Shown here: positions 29,341 to 36,442 of the stretch, piece by piece
How the letters are laid out: every line of letters starts with the position of its first letter
How positions within the stretch are numbered: position 1 is the stretch's first letter
NCBI GenBank assembly: GCA_963663275.1
Contig: OY760183.1
Coordinates: 1,888,001 to 1,952,000 of the forward strand
From: Chloroflexota bacterium
GTDB lineage: Bacteria > Chloroflexota > UBA11872 > VXOZ01
DNA: 64,000 nt
Direction of reading: 5' to 3'
Notes under the pieces: model-generated
The model's database searches: none
Seen by the model: the letters and a program-made list of their open reading frames with translations, nothing else
What the model was told of the DNA's origin: nothing
Translations under genes and position numbers: made by a program

Positions 29341-30105
29341 ATGGCAAAAGAACGAACCTACATTGCGGAAGCGATCGTGCTGCGCCGATCGGACTTTCAG
29401 GAAGCCGATCGGCGCTTGACGCTGCTGACGCCCGACCGGGGCCGCCTGAACGTGGTGGCAAAGGGCGTGCGGCGGCCCACCAGCCGCATGGCGGGGCACC
29501 TGGAACTCTTCACGCTGGCCAAGGTGTTCGTGGTGCGCCGCCGCAGCCTGGACCTGGTGGTGCAGGCGGAAACCGTGCAGACCTTCCCGCAACTGCGCAC
29601 CGATCTCAACCGCTTGCCGTACGCCTACCAGGCCGTGGAGACCGCCCATGTTCTGGTCGAGGAAGAGGTGGAGGCGCACGCGGAGTTCATCTTGCTTTTC
29701 AAGGCGTTGGCGGCGCTCGCCGCGACCGCCGCCTTGCCGCTGGTCTTGGTAGCCTATAAACTACAGCTATTGGCACTGCTGGGGTATCAGACTCAACTCC
29801 ACGAGTGCGCGCGCTGCGGCGGCCCGCTCTCTGTAGAAGACAATAGGATGCGCCCGGACAGCGGCGGCGTAGTCTGCGCCCCCTGCGGGGGAGTTTCGGG
29901 ACAGCCGGTTGAGGTTCGTGCGATCAAGTGCCTGCGCTGGCTGGCGCGCGAGCCGCTGCAAAGCGTCGAACGCCTGCAAGCCGACCCGGCCACCACCGTC
30001 CAACTGGAACAGGCCGCGGACGCCTTTGTGCGCTACGTGGCCGAACAGGACTTGAAGACAACACCCTTCTTGAATCGTATGCGCGCGTTGAAGACACAGT
30101 CGTAA
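29341..30105 (+). CDS. recO: DNA repair protein RecO
   Basis: EAIVLRRSDFQEADR..TLLT...G...VVAKGVRR, CxxC...CxxC zinc motif. Confidence 0.92.
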   Translation: MAKERTYIAEAIVLRRSDFQEADRRLTLLTPDRGRLNVVAKGVRRPTSRMAGHLELFTLAKVFVVRRRSLDLVVQAETVQTFPQLRTDLNRLPYAYQAVETAHVLVEEEVEAHAEFILLFKALAALAATAALPLVLVAYKLQLLALLGYQTQLHECARCGGPLSVEDNRMRPDSGGVVCAPCGGVSGQPVEVRAIKCLRWLAREPLQSVERLQADPATTVQLEQAADAFVRYVAEQDLKTTPFLNRMRALKTQS

Positions 30106-30116
30106 AGGGATTTGCG

Positions 30117-31457
30117 TTGGCAAAGAAAACCGACACTATGGAAGAGATCGTCAGTCTGTGCAAGCGGCGGGGGTTCGTCTATCCCTCCAGCGAAATCTAC
30201 GGCGGTTTCGAGAGCTTCTGGGACTACGGGCCGCTGGGCATTGCCTTGAAGCGCAACGTGCGCGAGGCCTGGTGGCACAATACCGTGCGCACGCGCCAGA
30301 ACGTGGTGGGCGTGGAGACCGGCGTGGTAATGAATCCCAGCGTGTGGCAGACCACCGGCCACGCTTCCCACTTTGCCGATACGCTGGTGGAGTGCACGAG
30401 TTGCCATCAACGCTTCCGCGTGGACCATCTTGAAGGAGAATCGTGCCCCAATTGCGGGGGCGAATTCACGGAGCCGCGCCGCTTCCTTACCATGTTCAAG
30501 ACGCACGTCGGCCCGGTGGAGGATGATTCCGCCGCGGCCTACCTGCGTCCCGAAACCGCCCAGGGCATGTTCGTGAACTTCAAGAACGTGCTCAATTCGG
30601 CGCGGCTGCGGCTGCCCTTTGGCATTGCGCAGATCGGCAAGTCGTACCGCAATGAGATTACTACCGGAAACTTCATCTTCCGCCAGCGCGAGTTCGAACA
30701 GATGGAACTGGAGTTCTTCTGCGAGCCGGGCACGGACGACGAATGGCACGCCTACTGGCTGGAGGCGCGGCGCCGATGGTACATTGCTTACGGGGTGAAG
30801 GAGGAAAATCTGCGTTTGCGCCAGCACGGGGACGACGAACTGGCGTTCTATGCCAAGTACTGCTGGGACATCGAGTACCGGTTTCCCTTCGGCTGGGGCG
30901 AGTTGGAAGGGATTTCGAACCGCACCGACTACGACCTGCGCAACCACAGCGAGGCTACCGGCGAGGACCTCACGTTCTACGACGAGCAGCGGAGAGAACA
31001 CGTCTCGCCCTACGTGATCGAGCCCGCGGCCGGGGCCGACCGGGCGCTACTGACGTTCCTGCTCGACGCCTACGATACGGACGTTGACGCCAAGGGGGAT
31101 TCACGGGTCGTGCTGCGCTTCCATCCGTTTCTCGCCCCCATCAAGGCGGCGGTCTTGCCGCTGGTGAAGAAGGGCGGGCTGCCGGACATCGCCAGGGAGA
31201 TCGTGGCGGAACTGCAATTGCACTGGGATGTATTCTACGACGAAAGCGGCAGCATCGGCCGCCGCTACCGGCGGCAGGACGAGGTCGGCACGCCCTTCGG
31301 CATTACGGTGGACTTTGAAACCAAAGACGACAGCACGGTGACCGTGCGCCACCGGGACAGCATGGAACAGGAGCGCGTGCCGATTGAGGGACTCGTAGCC
31401 TTCATGGCAGAGCGCATCCGCCCGGAGCCGAATCCTGAGGGCGATGTTGTTAGTTAG
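30117..31457 (+). CDS. glyQS: Glycine--tRNA ligase, alpha2 (GlyQS) type
   Basis: CKRRGFVYPSSEIYGG, YLRPETAQG, FRQREFEQMELEFF, SIGRRYRRQDEVGTP; TTG start after AAGGGA. Confidence 0.93.
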   Translation: MAKKTDTMEEIVSLCKRRGFVYPSSEIYGGFESFWDYGPLGIALKRNVREAWWHNTVRTRQNVVGVETGVVMNPSVWQTTGHASHFADTLVECTSCHQRFRVDHLEGESCPNCGGEFTEPRRFLTMFKTHVGPVEDDSAAAYLRPETAQGMFVNFKNVLNSARLRLPFGIAQIGKSYRNEITTGNFIFRQREFEQMELEFFCEPGTDDEWHAYWLEARRRWYIAYGVKEENLRLRQHGDDELAFYAKYCWDIEYRFPFGWGELEGISNRTDYDLRNHSEATGEDLTFYDEQRREHVSPYVIEPAAGADRALLTFLLDAYDTDVDAKGDSRVVLRFHPFLAPIKAAVLPLVKKGGLPDIAREIVAELQLHWDVFYDESGSIGRRYRRQDEVGTPFGITVDFETKDDSTVTVRHRDSMEQERVPIEGLVAFMAERIRPEPNPEGDVVS

Positions 31458-31661
31458 CTAATTGACGACATAGCGGAAGGGCTCGCCAGAGCCGCCTCTG
31501 CCTTGACGTCTTACACGCTTTTCTTTGATCAATGACCTGAGTACCTGATTGACTCGCTGTTGGTACCCGTTCTGACCAAAAAGCGTTTCAGCCAACTCCC
31601 GCTCAGTTCTTCCGGGGTGGTTCCTAATTAGCACCAGGAGCCTGTCAGCAATCGTCTCCAT
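31458..31661 (-). CDS. Small winged-helix/HTH-like hypothetical protein
   Basis: 67 aa, PGRTERELAETLFG...QQRVNQVLRSL; less GC-rich; starts 14 nt after the phosphatase-like gene. Confidence 0.55.
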   Translation of the reverse strand: METIADRLLVLIRNHPGRTERELAETLFGQNGYQQRVNQVLRSLIKEKRVRRQGRGGSGEPFRYVVN

Positions 31662-31675
31662 GTAAGGGGCTCACC

Positions 31676-32137
31676 TTAGGCCTTCAGACTCTCCGCGTAC
31701 TCGGCGATGAACGCATCAACCTCACCGCCCTTCAAGTCTCCGGGACGGAAGTCGCGCAGCGCCTGCACCGCGTCCGCCGGCGCGTAGCCTGCGTACTTCA
31801 CCAAGTACCCTGCCAGGACCGTACCGGCCCCGCCGTAACCGGAGCCTCAGTGAATGAGGGCTTTGTCGTCGCGCAGGGCCGCCGCGTGCAGGGACTCGAC
31901 GGCGGCGTCCAGCGTTGCCAGGTCGCTGCTCGCGCCGCTGAACTGCTCGACCGTCATGCCGAGGCGTTCGATGGTGGCCGTATCGGGTTCGTTGCGGGTG
32001 GCGGCAACGACGTGCTTGATGCCCTGCGCCGCCACTGCGCACAATTCCTCTTCGGTCTCAGGGAAGGCGGAAGCGGCGATCTTGCCTTCCTCGAACCACT
32101 TGAATACGGCGGGCAGAGACTGCTCCTGCGCAGACAT
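31676..32137 (-). CDS. DUSP23-like protein-tyrosine-phosphatase-fold protein with in-frame TGA at the catalytic Cys position (candidate selenoprotein, 153 aa)
   Basis: The track ORF stops at ...KALIH-TGA (31847-31849). The same frame continues GSGYGGAGTVLAGYLVKYAGYAPADAVQALRDFRPGDL...ESLKA-TAA, matching the DUSP C-terminal half. AAAGGAAG RBS. Confidence 0.75.
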
Positions 32138-32197
32138 GGGCTTCTTCCTTTCGTAACGGAGTACTGTCTATGGCACTTTGGGCGTAGGAGTGTGAGC

Positions 32198-32815
32198 CTA
32201 CTGGAAGTACAGCCTGAGTATCGCAATGATCAAACTCAGCGTCGCCAAGACGACGACTCCGGCAAGACTTCCCGTCATAATCCAGAGTTGCTTGAAGATG
32301 CTTGCCTTGAACTCGGCGATTTCCAGCTTCAATGCGGCCAGGTGAGCCGTCATCTTCTTGTCCAGGTCGTTCATCTGACGAGTCTGTCTGGCGTCCAAGT
32401 CCCTCACCTGACCCGTCAGCCTGGCGTCCAAGTCCCTCACCTGACCCGTCAGCCTGGCGTCCAAGTCGTTCATTTGGCCCGTGAATTCGCTCCTCAGTTC
32501 GGCCATCTGACCGGTGAGTCTACCATCCAGTTCGGCCATTTGGCCGGTGAGTTTGTTGTCCAAGTCGGCCATCTGACCGGTGAGTCTGTTGTCCAGGTCG
32601 GCCATTTGACCGGTGAGTCTGTTGTCCAGGTCGGCCATTTGACCGTTGAGTTCACTCTTGTGTGCGCTGAGTTCGCGCCTGAGGTCATCCTTGGTAACCA
32701 GGTTGATGGTGATTTCATCCAGCACGGCGACCAAGGCCTCGGCTTGGGGCTCAGTGATTTCCGCGGACGTCAGCGTCTTTACCGCCTTGTGGGTGTCAAA
32801 CGTCGTTGCAGCCAT
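32198..32815 (-). CDS. DUF1640/CCDC90-like coiled-coil protein with 11-aa tandem repeats and C-terminal TM anchor
   Basis: FDTHKAVKTL...EPQAEAL, LVTKDDL, about 9 copies of (L/F)TGQ(M/V)xDLDxR (33-bp DNA repeat), hydrophobic C-terminus; GGGGGAG RBS. Confidence 0.75.
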   Translation of the reverse strand: MAATTFDTHKAVKTLTSAEITEPQAEALVAVLDEITINLVTKDDLRRELSAHKSELNGQMADLDNRLTGQMADLDNRLTGQMADLDNKLTGQMAELDGRLTGQMAELRSEFTGQMNDLDARLTGQVRDLDARLTGQVRDLDARQTRQMNDLDKKMTAHLAALKLEIAEFKASIFKQLWIMTGSLAGVVVLATLSLIIAILRLYFQ

Positions 32816-33037
32816 TGCGTATGCTCCCCCGTGCCCAAGTCTCGTCATGCCGTGCTGGCCGCTGCTGAACCGGCGGCGCGTCGAGCGCCGTCATGCGTCT
32901 CGTCAACAATACCAAGAAAACAGGCGGCAAGCAAAGAGCGAACGGCGCGATCGCCGGCTTCTCAAGCCCCCGTGCGCAACTCCCATGCCACGTGCCGCTG
33001 TCCGTCCTGGCGTAGGCAGTGCGCTTTCTGGCGCCGG

Positions 33038-36000
33038 TCAGAAGGCAAGTGCCACGCCAATGGCGGCGCTGACGCCGTTGAGGTCAACGATCTCCCGTTG
33101 GGCCTCGTCCGGCGCGTCGGTCGGCTCCACCCGCAGGGATAGCGTCTCCTGGGCGACCGCGGCGCTGTGCGCGCGCAGCATCTCCGCGAGGGCGGCGCGC
33201 CCTTCCTCGCCGTCGGCAGCCGCGACGTAAGTCACGATGCGGTCGGAGAGGTCGAAGTCAGCCGCGCGGCGCAGGTTTTGAACGTGGTGTATCAGTTCAC
33301 GCGCCATGCCCTCCAGTTCGAGCGACGGGCTGACTTCCGTATGGAGCGCCACCAGATAACCTTCCTCAGTCGCCACGCTATAGTCGGCGCGCTCTCGCGC
33401 CTGCACGTCCACTTCTTCAGGCAGCAACGCGATTGATTGTCCGTCAACTTCAACCGAGATTGGCTCTCCCCGGGCAACCTGGCGGGCGCCAACCTGGGCG
33501 TCGGCCTGCCGGAGCGCCGCCGCGATGGCTTTGACCTGCCGGCCGTACTTGGGGCCGAGCAAGTTGAAGCGGGGCTTGAGTTCGTACGTCACCAACTCCT
33601 CTTCCGGCCCCACGAAACGCAGCGACTTGACGTTGAGTTCGCTGAGAATGTGCTCCTGCAGGCGCTCCAGGCCCGCCTGCTCGGCGGCGGTCTTGACGTG
33701 GGCCAGCATCTCCGGCAGCGGTTGGCGCACTTTAATCTTGCTGGAACTGCGCGCGGCGCGGCCCAAGCTCACGACCCGCTGCGCCAGTTCCATGTCGGCG
33801 AGCAAGTCTTCATCGATGAGCGCCGCCTTGTAGCGCGGCCATTCCGTGTGATGGACGCTCTCTGGCGCGCCGCCATCTACCGCGCGCACCAGGTTCTGGT
33901 AGACCTCTTCGCTGAGGAAGGGCATGATGGGCGCGAGCAGGCGCGTGAGCGTGGTAAGCGCCTCGTAGAGCGTGACGTAGGCGGAAAGGGTGTCCCGGTC
34001 CTGGCCGGACTTCCAGTAGCGGCGGCGGCCCCGGCGCACGTACCACGTGGACAACTGCTCGATGAAGTCGTTGACCCGCCGCGAGACGGTATAGGCGTCG
34101 AACTGGTCCAAGTCGTCGGTCACGTCCCGCACCAGCTTGTGGAGCAGCGCGATGATCCAGCGGTCGAGCAGCGACCGCACCTCCAGCGGCACGGAAACCT
34201 TCGTTGGGTCGAAATCCTCTAACCGGGCGTAGGTGACGAAGAAGTTGTAGACGTTCCAGAAGACCAGCAACCGGCGCTTGACGTCGTTGGCAACGCCGTA
34301 GCCGAAGTTCAGGTTTTGCTGGGTATTGCTCTCGCAGTAGAGCCAGCGCATCACGTCCGCGCCCATTTGCTCCACGGCGTCGTCGAACCAGATGGCGTTG
34401 CCGTGGCTCTTGTGCATTGGTCTGCCCCGCTCATCGTTGACCTTCTCGTAGATGAGCACGCTGCGGTAGGGGCGCACGTCCTCCAGGGTGACGCTCATGA
34501 AGGCCAAGGCATAGAACCAGAGACGAATCTGTTCGCGCATCTCGCTCACCCAGTCGGCCGGGTACCACTTGCCCCACTCGGCGCTGCCTTCCAGGTAGCC
34601 AAGCGTGGAGAACGGCACGATGCCGGCGTCCAGCCAGCAATCGCCGACCTCAGGGATGCGCGCAGTCTCGCTGTCGCACTGCTCGCAGCGGATCGTCACC
34701 TCATCGATCCACGGGCGGTGAAGTTCCGGCAGCGCGCGCACCTTGGCGGCGTCCACGGCCCGCTCTTCGAGTTCCTTTACCGTGCCGACGATGGTGACGT
34801 GATCGCAGTCCTCGCAGTGGTAGAACGGCAGCGGCAAGCCCCAGAAGCGCTTGCGCGAGATGCACCAGTCGCCCATGTTGTGCAGCCAGTCGTCCATCCG
34901 CTTGCGGCCGTACTCGGGCGCCCAGGCGACCGTTTGGTTCTCCGCCAGCATCCGCTCGCGAATCTCCTCGGCGGAGATGAACCACTCGTCCACCAGGCGG
35001 AAGGCCACCTCTTCGCCGCAGCGCCAGCAGACGGGGTAGCGGTGGGTGTAGTCCTCGATGCGGTAGACGATGCCCGCTTCCTCGAGTGCGGCGAAGATCA
35101 TCTCGTTCGTTTCAGTGATGTTTCGTCCCGTAAGCGCATTGAAACCATCGACGTAGTTGCCGTCGCCGTCGATGGGCACGATGACGTGAAGCCCGTGTTC
35201 CTGCGAGAGTTCGTAGTCTTCCGCGCCGCACCCCGGCGCGATGTGCACGATGCCGGTGCCCTCTTCCTCGCCCACGTTCTCCCAGGCGACCACTTTCGTC
35301 GGGAAGCCTTGCTGCGCCGGCAGTTCGTGCCAGGGCCCCACGTACGCCAAATCGACAAGCTCAGCGCCTGGAAACTCGCGCACGGCCTCGAGCGTGCCGC
35401 GCCCAACGCTCTCCAAAGTGCCTTTCGAGAGGTAGTAGGTGTCGCCGTTCGCTTTGGCGGCTACGTAGGTCAGATCGGGATGCACCGCCAGCGCGGTGTT
35501 GGCGGCGAGCGTCCACGGCGTTGTGGTCCAGACCAGGAAGTACTCATTGTCACGGCCCTCGACCGGCAGCCGCAGCGTGATGCCGGGATGGGTGACTTCG
35601 CGGTAGGTGTCGGTGCCGACCAACTCGTGCTGCGAGAGGCTGGTGCCGCAGCGAATGCACCAGGGCATCGAGCGCCAGCCCTTGTACAACCAGCCCTTCT
35701 CATGGCAGCGTTGCAGGAAGTGCCAAATGTGCTCGATATTGGTATCGTCCATGGTGTAGTACGAGTTGTCCCAATCCATCCACTGGCCGAGCCGGATGGA
35801 CTGGTTCGTCTGCACCGTGGAAAAGTGCTCGACGCGCTGGCGGCAGGCGCGGGAGAAGTTGTCCAGGCCGAATTCCTCGATTTCGTGCTTGGAGTCGAAA
35901 CCGAGTTCGCGCTCCACCTCGACTTCCAGCCAGAGGCCCTGGCAGTCGAAGCCGTTTTGGTAACGTTGCGCAAAGCCTTGCATGGCCTTGAAGCGCTGGT

Positions 36001-36208
36001 AAACGTCTTTGTAGGTGCGCCCCCAGGCGTGATGGACGCCCATGGGATTATTGGCGGTGATGGGGCCGTCGATGAAAGACCAGCGCGGGTTGCCGCGGTT
36101 CTTCTCTACGAGTTTGTTGAAGGCATCGGTATCCTCCCAGAATTGCAGGATCCGATGCTCCATACTGGGAAAGTCGAGGTTACTGCTGACTTCCTTGAAC
36201 CCGGCCAC
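33038..36208 (-). CDS. ileS: Isoleucine--tRNA ligase, type 2
   Basis: DGPITANNPMGVHH, GFDCQGL, WTTTPWTL, DWCISRKRFWG, PMHKS; GTG start with AGGAGG RBS. Confidence 0.93.
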   Translation of the reverse strand: MAGFKEVSSNLDFPSMEHRILQFWEDTDAFNKLVEKNRGNPRWSFIDGPITANNPMGVHHAWGRTYKDVYQRFKAMQGFAQRYQNGFDCQGLWLEVEVERELGFDSKHEIEEFGLDNFSRACRQRVEHFSTVQTNQSIRLGQWMDWDNSYYTMDDTNIEHIWHFLQRCHEKGWLYKGWRSMPWCIRCGTSLSQHELVGTDTYREVTHPGITLRLPVEGRDNEYFLVWTTTPWTLAANTALAVHPDLTYVAAKANGDTYYLSKGTLESVGRGTLEAVREFPGAELVDLAYVGPWHELPAQQGFPTKVVAWENVGEEEGTGIVHIAPGCGAEDYELSQEHGLHVIVPIDGDGNYVDGFNALTGRNITETNEMIFAALEEAGIVYRIEDYTHRYPVCWRCGEEVAFRLVDEWFISAEEIRERMLAENQTVAWAPEYGRKRMDDWLHNMGDWCISRKRFWGLPLPFYHCEDCDHVTIVGTVKELEERAVDAAKVRALPELHRPWIDEVTIRCEQCDSETARIPEVGDCWLDAGIVPFSTLGYLEGSAEWGKWYPADWVSEMREQIRLWFYALAFMSVTLEDVRPYRSVLIYEKVNDERGRPMHKSHGNAIWFDDAVEQMGADVMRWLYCESNTQQNLNFGYGVANDVKRRLLVFWNVYNFFVTYARLEDFDPTKVSVPLEVRSLLDRWIIALLHKLVRDVTDDLDQFDAYTVSRRVNDFIEQLSTWYVRRGRRRYWKSGQDRDTLSAYVTLYEALTTLTRLLAPIMPFLSEEVYQNLVRAVDGGAPESVHHTEWPRYKAALIDEDLLADMELAQRVVSLGRAARSSSKIKVRQPLPEMLAHVKTAAEQAGLERLQEHILSELNVKSLRFVGPEEELVTYELKPRFNLLGPKYGRQVKAIAAALRQADAQVGARQVARGEPISVEVDGQSIALLPEEVDVQARERADYSVATEEGYLVALHTEVSPSLELEGMARELIHHVQNLRRAADFDLSDRIVTYVAAADGEEGRAALAEMLRAHSAAVAQETLSLRVEPTDAPDEAQREIVDLNGVSAAIGVALAF

Positions 36209-36442
36209 CAGGCGCCTCCTCAGATGCCGTAAATCTACGGGGACGTGACTATGAATATCGTTAGTGTTGTTTGAGGCACGCCACGCATGGGCAAACGCGA
36301 AACAAACGGGATTCGCTTCGCTCCAGACCGAGCGACTCGCGATAGCGCCGAAGCGGAAAGGTCGCTCGCCGGTGATTGCGCCGCGCCGATGCACGGCAAT
36401 CGGACTGAGCGGCCAAGCGCGCGTGCTGCTCCTACGCGTGGC

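Follow-up and report, generated by a model that had tools for sequence, protein, structure and literature searches.

Phosphatases of the DUSP23/VHZ type are single-domain members of the protein tyrosine phosphatase (PTP) superfamily. They are represented by human structures (PDB 4erc and 2img), by a bacterial structure (25xa) and by the archaeal proteins SsoPTP and Tk-PTP. They have a His before the nucleophilic Cys, a GxG within the P-loop, a helix following the P-loop and an R..R pair in the C-terminal loop. Here we describe a gene of this type in which the nucleophile codon is UGA, from the genome of a Chloroflexota bacterium (GTDB lineage Chloroflexota; UBA11872; VXOZ01; GenBank assembly GCA_963663275.1). 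The gene lies on the minus strand of a 64,000-nucleotide stretch of contig OY760183.1 (positions 1,888,001 to 1,952,000), which is called the window throughout and to which all coordinates refer unless the contig is named. The encoded protein shares all of the above features with the DUSP23/VHZ-type phosphatases. It differs from them in the predicted selenocysteine (Sec) nucleophile, the replacement of the P-loop Arg by Gly and of the following Thr by Ala, the deletion of the [VI]-x-D general-acid motif and the replacement of the Q-loop Gln by Val. In addition, the C-terminal RPGS-IE is changed to RPGD-LK or RERD-LP and the N-terminal NFSWV to FKWF.

STYX and other pseudophosphatases of this superfamily are similar in that they combine the phosphatase fold with the replacement of catalytic residues. 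To our knowledge, the known pseudophosphatases usually lose the nucleophile, whereas in the gene described here the nucleophile would be upgraded to Sec and all else is lost. Partial similarity is also found among known selenoproteins in which Sec stands in for the nucleophilic Cys within a small anion-cradling loop. Sec-containing rhodanese-like proteins (UxxG, UxxS) and arsenate reductases (UxxS, UxxC) are listed in Table 1 of a May 2026 review (PMC13188914) and are known from computation only. The motif of the present protein is also UxxG. However, the fold and the family are different, and any likeness in activity is drawn by analogy.

The reading frame opens with an ATG at 32137-32135, reaches an in-frame TGA at codon 97 (31849-31847) and closes with a TAA at 31678-31676. 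Standard open reading frame (ORF) calling yields a protein of 96 amino acids (aa) with the C-terminus ...DDKALIH. The initial annotation of this DNA had described a 96-aa ORF closing at ALIH-TGA with a 56-codon continuation to TAA, and translation of the minus strand bears this out. The read-through translation, ...DDKALIH-U-GSGYGGAGTVLAGYLVK...DAVQALRDFRPGD...SLKA, comprises 153 aa. The 56 open codons beyond the TGA by themselves carry little weight because the genome is 64% G+C, and the two halves of the gene are alike in codon-usage score (0.31 and 0.29, under a weak model). We propose, at a probability of about 0.85, that this is a genuine and uncatalogued selenoprotein gene in which UGA-97 would be decoded as Sec and of which the product is predicted to have a DUSP23/VHZ-like PTP fold. 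The selenoprotein assignment is strongly supported by the comparative sequence evidence presented below.

The conservation of the TGA was assessed in two genera: the genus of the assembly (own genus, 17 genomes) and a second genus of the same class but another family (9 genomes). A six-frame search of 61 related genomes produced 42 match rows, 26 of them with one internal TGA. The TGA-bearing gene was found in 17/17 genomes of the own genus, at 79-87% identity to the window protein, and in 9/9 genomes of the second genus, at 45-48% identity. The other 16 match rows (28-37% identity) contain no TGA. When the genes were extracted, the TGA occupied the identical codon in all 26, within the motif H-U-G[SGA]G[YF]GGAGT. 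A search of all 98 genomes of the class recovered the same 26 carriers and no more, and a phylum sample of 401 genomes held no further ones.

The TGA is also present in other contigs. A search of metagenome contigs with a degenerate DNA pattern encoding H-U-G-x-G-[YF]-G-G-A-G-T gave one match, a contig of the own genus (L080) that carries the TGA. Contigs from two public sequencing runs cover the position, one (run X1) spanning 31679-32200 with 17 differences from the window and the other (run X3) spanning 31839-32200 with 11 differences, and neither has a listed variant at the TGA. The scan of genome contigs found 24 loci, all in the two known genera; these probably come from the same genomes and thus are not independent. 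Six public runs contain DNA related to window positions 31400-32400; four of them (X3-X6) are labelled as sponge metagenome and none of the six is recorded as RNA.

A TGA unique to this assembly, which the initial annotation had raised as a concern, is therefore not what was found: the codon is shared by 26/26 orthologues, the metagenome contig and the contigs of two runs. The same data refute the explanation by a pseudogene, a nonsense mutation or an error of assembly. Only the stop itself speaks for that explanation, while the same TGA recurs in orthologues down to 45% identity, no orthologue contains a frameshift, and the ratio of nonsynonymous to synonymous divergence (dN/dS) is 0.1-0.2 on both sides of the TGA. 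We give it practically no credence.

Selection on the codons beyond the TGA was measured as dN/dS by the Nei-Gojobori method (NG86) over all pairs of orthologues, 136 in the own genus and 36 in the second. In the own genus the ratio before the TGA is 0.112 and that after it 0.127, or 0.097 when codons 102-109 are left out. The corresponding ratios for the second genus are 0.208 and 0.195. Purifying selection is thus alike on the two sides, and the lack of downstream conservation against which the initial annotation had warned was not observed. Five of the 17 own-genus orthologues end at a second TGA, located one codon past the TAA of the window gene; therefore the same triplet terminates where no hairpin follows. 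From these comparisons, a single gene family would use TGA for Sec at codon 97 and, at the end of the gene, as a stop.

In the public databases the protein exists as its N-terminal part. A word-indexed search of 5.8 billion proteins returned 25 relatives, of which 24 have a length of 96 aa and the remaining one a length of 114 aa; the full-length protein is not among them. They come from sources that include NCBI, ENA, JGI and Logan, and their sole name is 'hypothetical protein'. The expectation that standard annotation would truncate the protein is thus borne out by 24 of 25 database relatives, and the gene is cut short or divided in these records, which is an annotation error. The same 24 stubs could be taken at face value. 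The UGA would then be a true stop, the 96-aa piece would be functional, and the downstream codons would be translated separately or not at all; TGA is, moreover, a common stop in this genome. However, a 96-aa product would break off within the active-site loop of what is one compact domain, and the 56 codons that follow are under purifying selection in the same frame. No conserved in-frame start lies after the TGA among the orthologues (the TTG at codon 112 in the window is CTC in the second genus). A conserved hairpin at the distance of a selenocysteine insertion sequence (SECIS) and a full set of Sec machinery, both described below, also stand against termination, which we consider very improbable.

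The type case of a bacterial SECIS within an ORF is that of Escherichia coli fdhF. The gene described here is similar in having a stem-loop in the coding region just 3' of the UGA, with a stem of 6-7 bp and a loop of 3-5 nt in which G is followed by U. Counted from the U of the UGA, G19-G25 pair with C29-U35 and leave G26-U27-A28 in the loop. This pairing is kept in all 26 genes (100% of cells, 12 distinct sequences). Its energy is -10.0 kcal/mol for the own genus, and the second genus gives -12.4 to -12.9 kcal/mol. The region is also frozen at the level of codon choice. Among 31 invariant residue columns with at least fourfold degeneracy, just four show one and the same codon across the 26 genes. 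These four columns are adjacent (GGG GCC GGT ACG, codons 103-106) and coincide with the apex of the hairpin. Across the 136 own-genus pairs, codons 102-109 have a dS of 0, compared with 0.86-0.91 in the rest of the gene. The hairpin differs from described bacterial elements in that it matches no Rfam model and that its binding by SelB is predicted.

The consensus model of the bacterial SECIS by Zhang and Gladyshev, as summarised in section 5 of PMC13188914, has a loop of 3-9 nt, a stem of 4-16 bp and an energy of at most -7.5 kcal/mol. A G is found in the first two loop positions, mostly as N1-G-[G|U]-N-N2, and the spacing from the UGA to the loop is 16-37 nt. The +19 to +35 hairpin, with the loop G-G-U-A-C and a spacing of 21-22 nt, agrees with this published consensus in every respect as summarised there. 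Two other hairpins had been proposed in the initial annotation, and both exist in the window sequence and overlap the conserved one. The first (+4 to +24) is the minimum-energy fold here, at -13.6 kcal/mol, and is paired in 81% of cells but has only -1.6 kcal/mol in the second genus. The second (+22 to +38) has -6.6 kcal/mol here, is paired in 88% of cells and reaches +1.6 kcal/mol in the second genus (-2.9 in one sequence). The claim that the RNA directly 3' of the UGA can fold is therefore upheld, while neither of the proposed structures is conserved and the conserved register is +19 to +35.

The window forms part of a single contig of 3.53 Mb. This contig encodes a tRNA-Sec, which scores 67 bits (cut-off 47) and is called by ARAGORN as SeC with anticodon TCA, together with SelA (443 bits), SelB (367 bits) and SelD (352 bits). 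The Sec machinery, which according to the initial annotation might have been missing, is thus present in the genome. SelD itself contains an in-frame TGA (CAG-U-AGK; contig 3051010-3051993, outside the window) with a hairpin directly after the UGA. Of the 98 class genomes, 86 contain SelA; therefore the Sec trait is widespread in the class and the gene described here is restricted.

Insertion of a standard amino acid (Trp, Cys, Gly or Arg) at the UGA, through a change of code or through near-cognate suppression, would by itself explain the downstream selection. The genetic code is standard, however, since TGA ends 1145 of the 2786 ORFs of at least 300 aa in the genome as well as the five orthologues mentioned above. 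The synonymous freeze over the hairpin, together with tRNA-Sec, SelA, SelB and SelD, points to SelB-dependent decoding. The position of the UGA on a Cys nucleophile is also the usual one for Sec/Cys pairs. Read-through with a standard amino acid is thus about as hard to credit as a true stop.

Other genes of the genome also contain in-frame TGA codons where these would be expected. Further likely selenoprotein genes lie outside the window at contig positions 2732913-2733686, 2790653-2791003, 2089000-2089362 and 2020630-2020989. A formate-dehydrogenase-like gene has the TGA in the context CNRT-U-HAPS, and three genes of the AhpC/TSA family have it in WASW-U-RCRD, WTYT-U-PICR and WTYG-U-INCR. 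As an internal control for the hairpin, the peroxiredoxin-like WASW-U-RCRD gene can be considered: its RNA folds into a structure whose GGU loop, at +25 to +27, is as far from the UGA as that of the gene described here.

The read-through product was assigned to the PTP fold from domain matches, PDB alignments and structure prediction. In Pfam it matches PTP-SAK (PF22784, residues 10-122, E 1.2e-16, 61.5 bits against a cut-off of 27) and DSPc (PF00782, residues 32-132, E 2.2e-9, 37.7 bits against a cut-off of 33.5). Both matches span codon 97; therefore the domain runs across the TGA. PDB entries 25xa_A, 2img_A and 4erc_A align over residues 9-151 with E of about 1e-13. The first is a bacterial 'dual specificity protein phosphatase family protein' and the other two are human DUSP23/VHZ. 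The TGA falls on the catalytic Cys of all three, and the claim that it sits exactly on the phosphatase nucleophile codon is confirmed by the DUSP23 alignment. An AlphaFold2 model built with the 26 orthologues has a predicted local distance difference test score (pLDDT) of 88.1 and a predicted template modelling score (pTM) of 0.84. The best PDB matches of the model in Foldseek are 4erc and 2img (VHZ, DUSP23), at template modelling (TM) scores of 0.80-0.84 and a probability of 1.00. No rhodanese (PF00581) or ArsC/low-molecular-weight PTP domain was found, since Pfam matches at E up to 1 comprise PF22784, PF00782 and PF22785 only.

The active site was compared in an alignment of the 26 Sec forms with 103 Cys forms (15 from genomes of the class and 88 database representatives of 140-200 aa). 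The His, Cys and Arg of the Cys forms are invariant because these sequences were chosen by the pattern HCx5R. At the P-loop Arg, which is thus fixed in the Cys set by construction, all 26 Sec forms have Gly, and at the next residue all 26 have Ala where the Cys forms have Thr (95 of 103) or Ser (3). The general-acid loop [VI]-x-D has lost three residues in every Sec form, whereas the Cys forms have Asp in 85 cases and Asn in 12. The Q-loop residue is Val in 25 Sec forms and Ala in one, compared with Gln in 99 of the 103 Cys forms. The initial annotation had reported the replacement of the CX5R Arg by Gly, the shortened general-acid loop and the altered Q-loop from this one sequence, and all three hold in the 26 Sec forms. 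Differences were also found outside the catalytic core, where the Ser of RPGS (91 Cys forms) is Asp in all 26 Sec forms and the Ser of NFSWV (59 Cys forms) is Lys in 25. Consequently the phosphatase signature HCx5R(S/T), the general-acid Asp and the Q-loop Gln are without a match in 26/26 Sec forms. The Sec proteins of the second genus contain no cysteine anywhere; therefore they have no internal resolving thiol.

The pattern of retained and lost residues bears on what the protein might do. One interpretation is that the selenoprotein is still a phosphatase, in which Sec compensates for the lost Arg, Asp and Gln and the reaction proceeds through a selenophosphoryl-enzyme intermediate. In its favour, the protein retains the fold, the His that precedes the nucleophile and a P-loop backbone rich in glycine. 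Sec surpasses Cys both as a nucleophile and as a leaving group, and the second genus retains a canonical Cys paralogue, so the substrates could be divided between the two proteins. The four catalytic residues other than the nucleophile are gone in all 26 Sec forms, however. The Arg that binds phosphate and the transition state is Gly, and Lys13 of FKWF is at best a candidate for a positive replacement. Retained phosphatase activity is thus unlikely, although it deserves far more consideration than the readings in which no Sec is inserted.

The alternative that we favour is that the Sec protein no longer hydrolyses phosphate esters and has taken up redox or chalcogen/oxyanion chemistry instead. 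From the missing residues and by analogy with other selenoproteins, the chance of this is put at somewhat below even. More tentatively still, it may be a PTP-fold Sec enzyme with a chemistry new to the superfamily, in which a lone selenolate acts from a glycine-only P-loop without the Arg, the acid or an internal thiol. Since the Sec form has no Cys equivalent among the best 150 relatives, selenium would be obligatory in such an enzyme rather than an optional upgrade.

The proposed sequence of events is as follows. The mRNA would be translated through UGA-97 as selenocysteine, with the short hairpin in the ORF recruiting SelB with Sec-tRNA(Sec) through G26-U27, which the apical loop presents 21-22 nt after the UGA. 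The product would be a single-domain protein of 153 aa in which, as homology and fold prediction suggest, the selenolate lies at the bottom of the backbone-amide cradle of the P-loop. The Sec clade may have arisen from canonical Cys phosphatases, with the change from Cys to Sec and the loss of the Arg, Ser/Thr, Asp and Gln all placed on one long branch. The selenolate in its anion-binding loop could then serve redox or chalcogen/oxyanion chemistry, such as the reduction of peroxides or oxyanions or the carriage of sulfur or selenium, with an external thiol as the reductant.

The relationship of the Sec forms to Cys phosphatases was investigated with a profile of the 26 proteins, which was searched against 1.84 billion representative proteins and gave 2645 matches at E up to 0.001. 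The best 150 of these 2645 consist of 139 proteins with HCx5R, 2 with Cx5R that lack the His, 8 stubs and 1 C-terminal fragment. The 8 stubs end exactly at the His that precedes the TGA position. No full-length Cys protein with an Arg-less loop was found among the best 150 of the 2645 relatives. At the position of U97 a Cys is present in 141 of those best 150, as well as in the second genus's 9 paralogues and 6 further members of the class.

A maximum-likelihood tree of 90 rows, built by a quick search, places the 26 Sec forms and four of the stubs on one branch of length 1.04 with a Shimodaira-Hasegawa-like approximate likelihood ratio (SH-aLRT) support of 98. A clade of their own, supported at 100, holds the Cys paralogues. 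These paralogues are found beside the Sec form in every genome of the second genus (L110-L118) and are canonical DUSP23-like proteins with the motifs HCAAG[LR]GRTGT, PV[EQP]DFAAP and RPGSVET..QQ. At the thresholds used, the own genus has the Sec form only. The four stubs on the Sec branch (P0031, P0033, P0035 and P0152) are database proteins of 97-99 aa in which FKWF is present and the C-terminus reads ...L/T-L-V-H. They are less than 50% identical to either genus but group inside the Sec clade, and probably represent Sec forms from additional lineages that have been truncated. The placement of these divergent stubs therefore suggests that the family is wider than two genera.

Several points weigh against the interpretation as a selenoprotein with a new function. 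The 26 genomes represent two lineages only, and therefore few independent observations. The only variation in the hairpin is one alternation of G-U and G-C with no compensatory change; therefore its support is conservation, in the form of the synonymous freeze, and not covariation. Folded alone, the 45 nt 3' of the UGA are no stabler than shuffled sequences (z = 0.06), and the minimum-energy fold in this genome is the competing hairpin. An Rfam search of 31600-32200 at E up to 10 returned two chance microRNA-like matches only. Sec incorporation and the 153-aa product are predicted here from sequence, and the functional part of the proposal is read from which residues are missing. The nucleophilicity and leaving-group quality of Sec mean that residual phosphatase chemistry could persist. 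The gene neighbourhoods in both genera give no functional hint.

As far as the searches go, the family is not in the current catalogues of selenoproteins. Table 1 of PMC13188914 lists 119 prokaryotic selenoprotein families and subfamilies, most of the families being thioredoxin-like. There is no entry for a phosphatase, dual-specificity phosphatase or PTP in the rows of this table that are given in parts 1-2 of section 7, and the words 'phosphatase' and 'PTP' do not occur in the portions of its text that were covered. The word 'phosphatase' is likewise absent from the main-text passages covered of BSepDB (PMC13326102) and deep-Sep (PMC12013277). No NCBIfam selenoprotein model matched the protein, which gave only a partial match of 15 bits to PRK12361. 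Full-text searches of the literature outside subscription journals yielded no description of a Sec-bearing tyrosine phosphatase or of a DUSP23-type bacterial protein with Sec. The initial annotation did not recognise a described selenoprotein family in this gene, and the Table 1 rows, NCBIfam and the literature searches agree with it.

If the Sec assignment is correct, this selenoprotein family would belong to a fold that has no representative among the 119 families catalogued in 2026, insofar as they are given in the table rows covered. Within the PTP superfamily, and to the extent of the literature searches, no natural Sec protein would precede it. The pattern is unusual in that the nucleophile would be kept and upgraded, the other catalytic residues are all lost and a Cys counterpart was not found among the best 150 relatives. 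Published searches for selenoproteins depend on close Cys homologues. The family may therefore offer a clean natural experiment on what selenium does beyond sulfur in a P-loop. The hairpin would provide a SECIS example for sponge-associated Chloroflexota and could seed searches for more selenoproteins there.

The features of the gene are collected in Table 1. A scan of 31300-33200 found no sigma-70-like promoter. A codon-usage scan for TGA-interrupted genes gave 177 candidates, mostly shadow ORFs, and was dropped because its model was weak.

Table 1. Positions of the predicted selenoprotein gene and its parts in the window.
Feature	Position	Strand	Basis
Predicted selenoprotein coding sequence in full, 153 codons and TAA, Sec assigned to codon 97	31676..32137	(-)	Translation, Pfam, PDB matches, AlphaFold2, 26 co-linear orthologues
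In-frame UGA (U97), nucleophile codon of the PTP fold	31847..31849	(-)	Alignment to the catalytic Cys of DUSP23; TGA column 26/26
P-loop, codons 96-106, H-U-G-S-G-Y-G-G-A-G-T; signature Arg replaced by Gly103 and next Ser/Thr by Ala104	31820..31852	(-)	Translation, alignment
SECIS-like hairpin with stem GGGGCC(G)/(C)GGUCCU and apical loop G-GUA-C (G26, U27), at +19 to +35 counted from the U of UGA	31815..31831	(-)	RNAalifold consensus
96-codon part, a separate protein in databases; clade-specific FKWF motif and shortened general-acid loop QFS-GASSD	31850..32137	(-)	
Possible ribosome-binding site, purine-rich AAGGAAGAAG, 4-13 nt 5' of the ATG	32141..32150	(-)	Sequence inspection only

The gene is located among the housekeeping genes recO, glyS (glycyl-tRNA synthetase) and ileS (isoleucyl-tRNA synthetase), which occupy 29341-31457 and 33038-36394 of the window. 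The same order of recO, glyS and ileS surrounds the Sec gene at 15/15 other loci of the own genus and at 0/9 loci of the second genus, where the neighbours are unrelated. Directly 3' of the Sec gene and on the same strand is a 67-aa ORF (31458-31661, minus strand), for which there was no Pfam match and no tblastn match in 24 related loci. Between ileS and the Sec gene lies a gene (32198-32848, minus strand) for a CCDC90-like coiled-coil protein of 216 aa, with about nine 11-residue repeats similar to LTGQMADLDNR and a C-terminal hydrophobic segment. At 12 of the 15 other own-genus loci, a related but shorter piece is found to the other side of the Sec gene and on the opposite strand.

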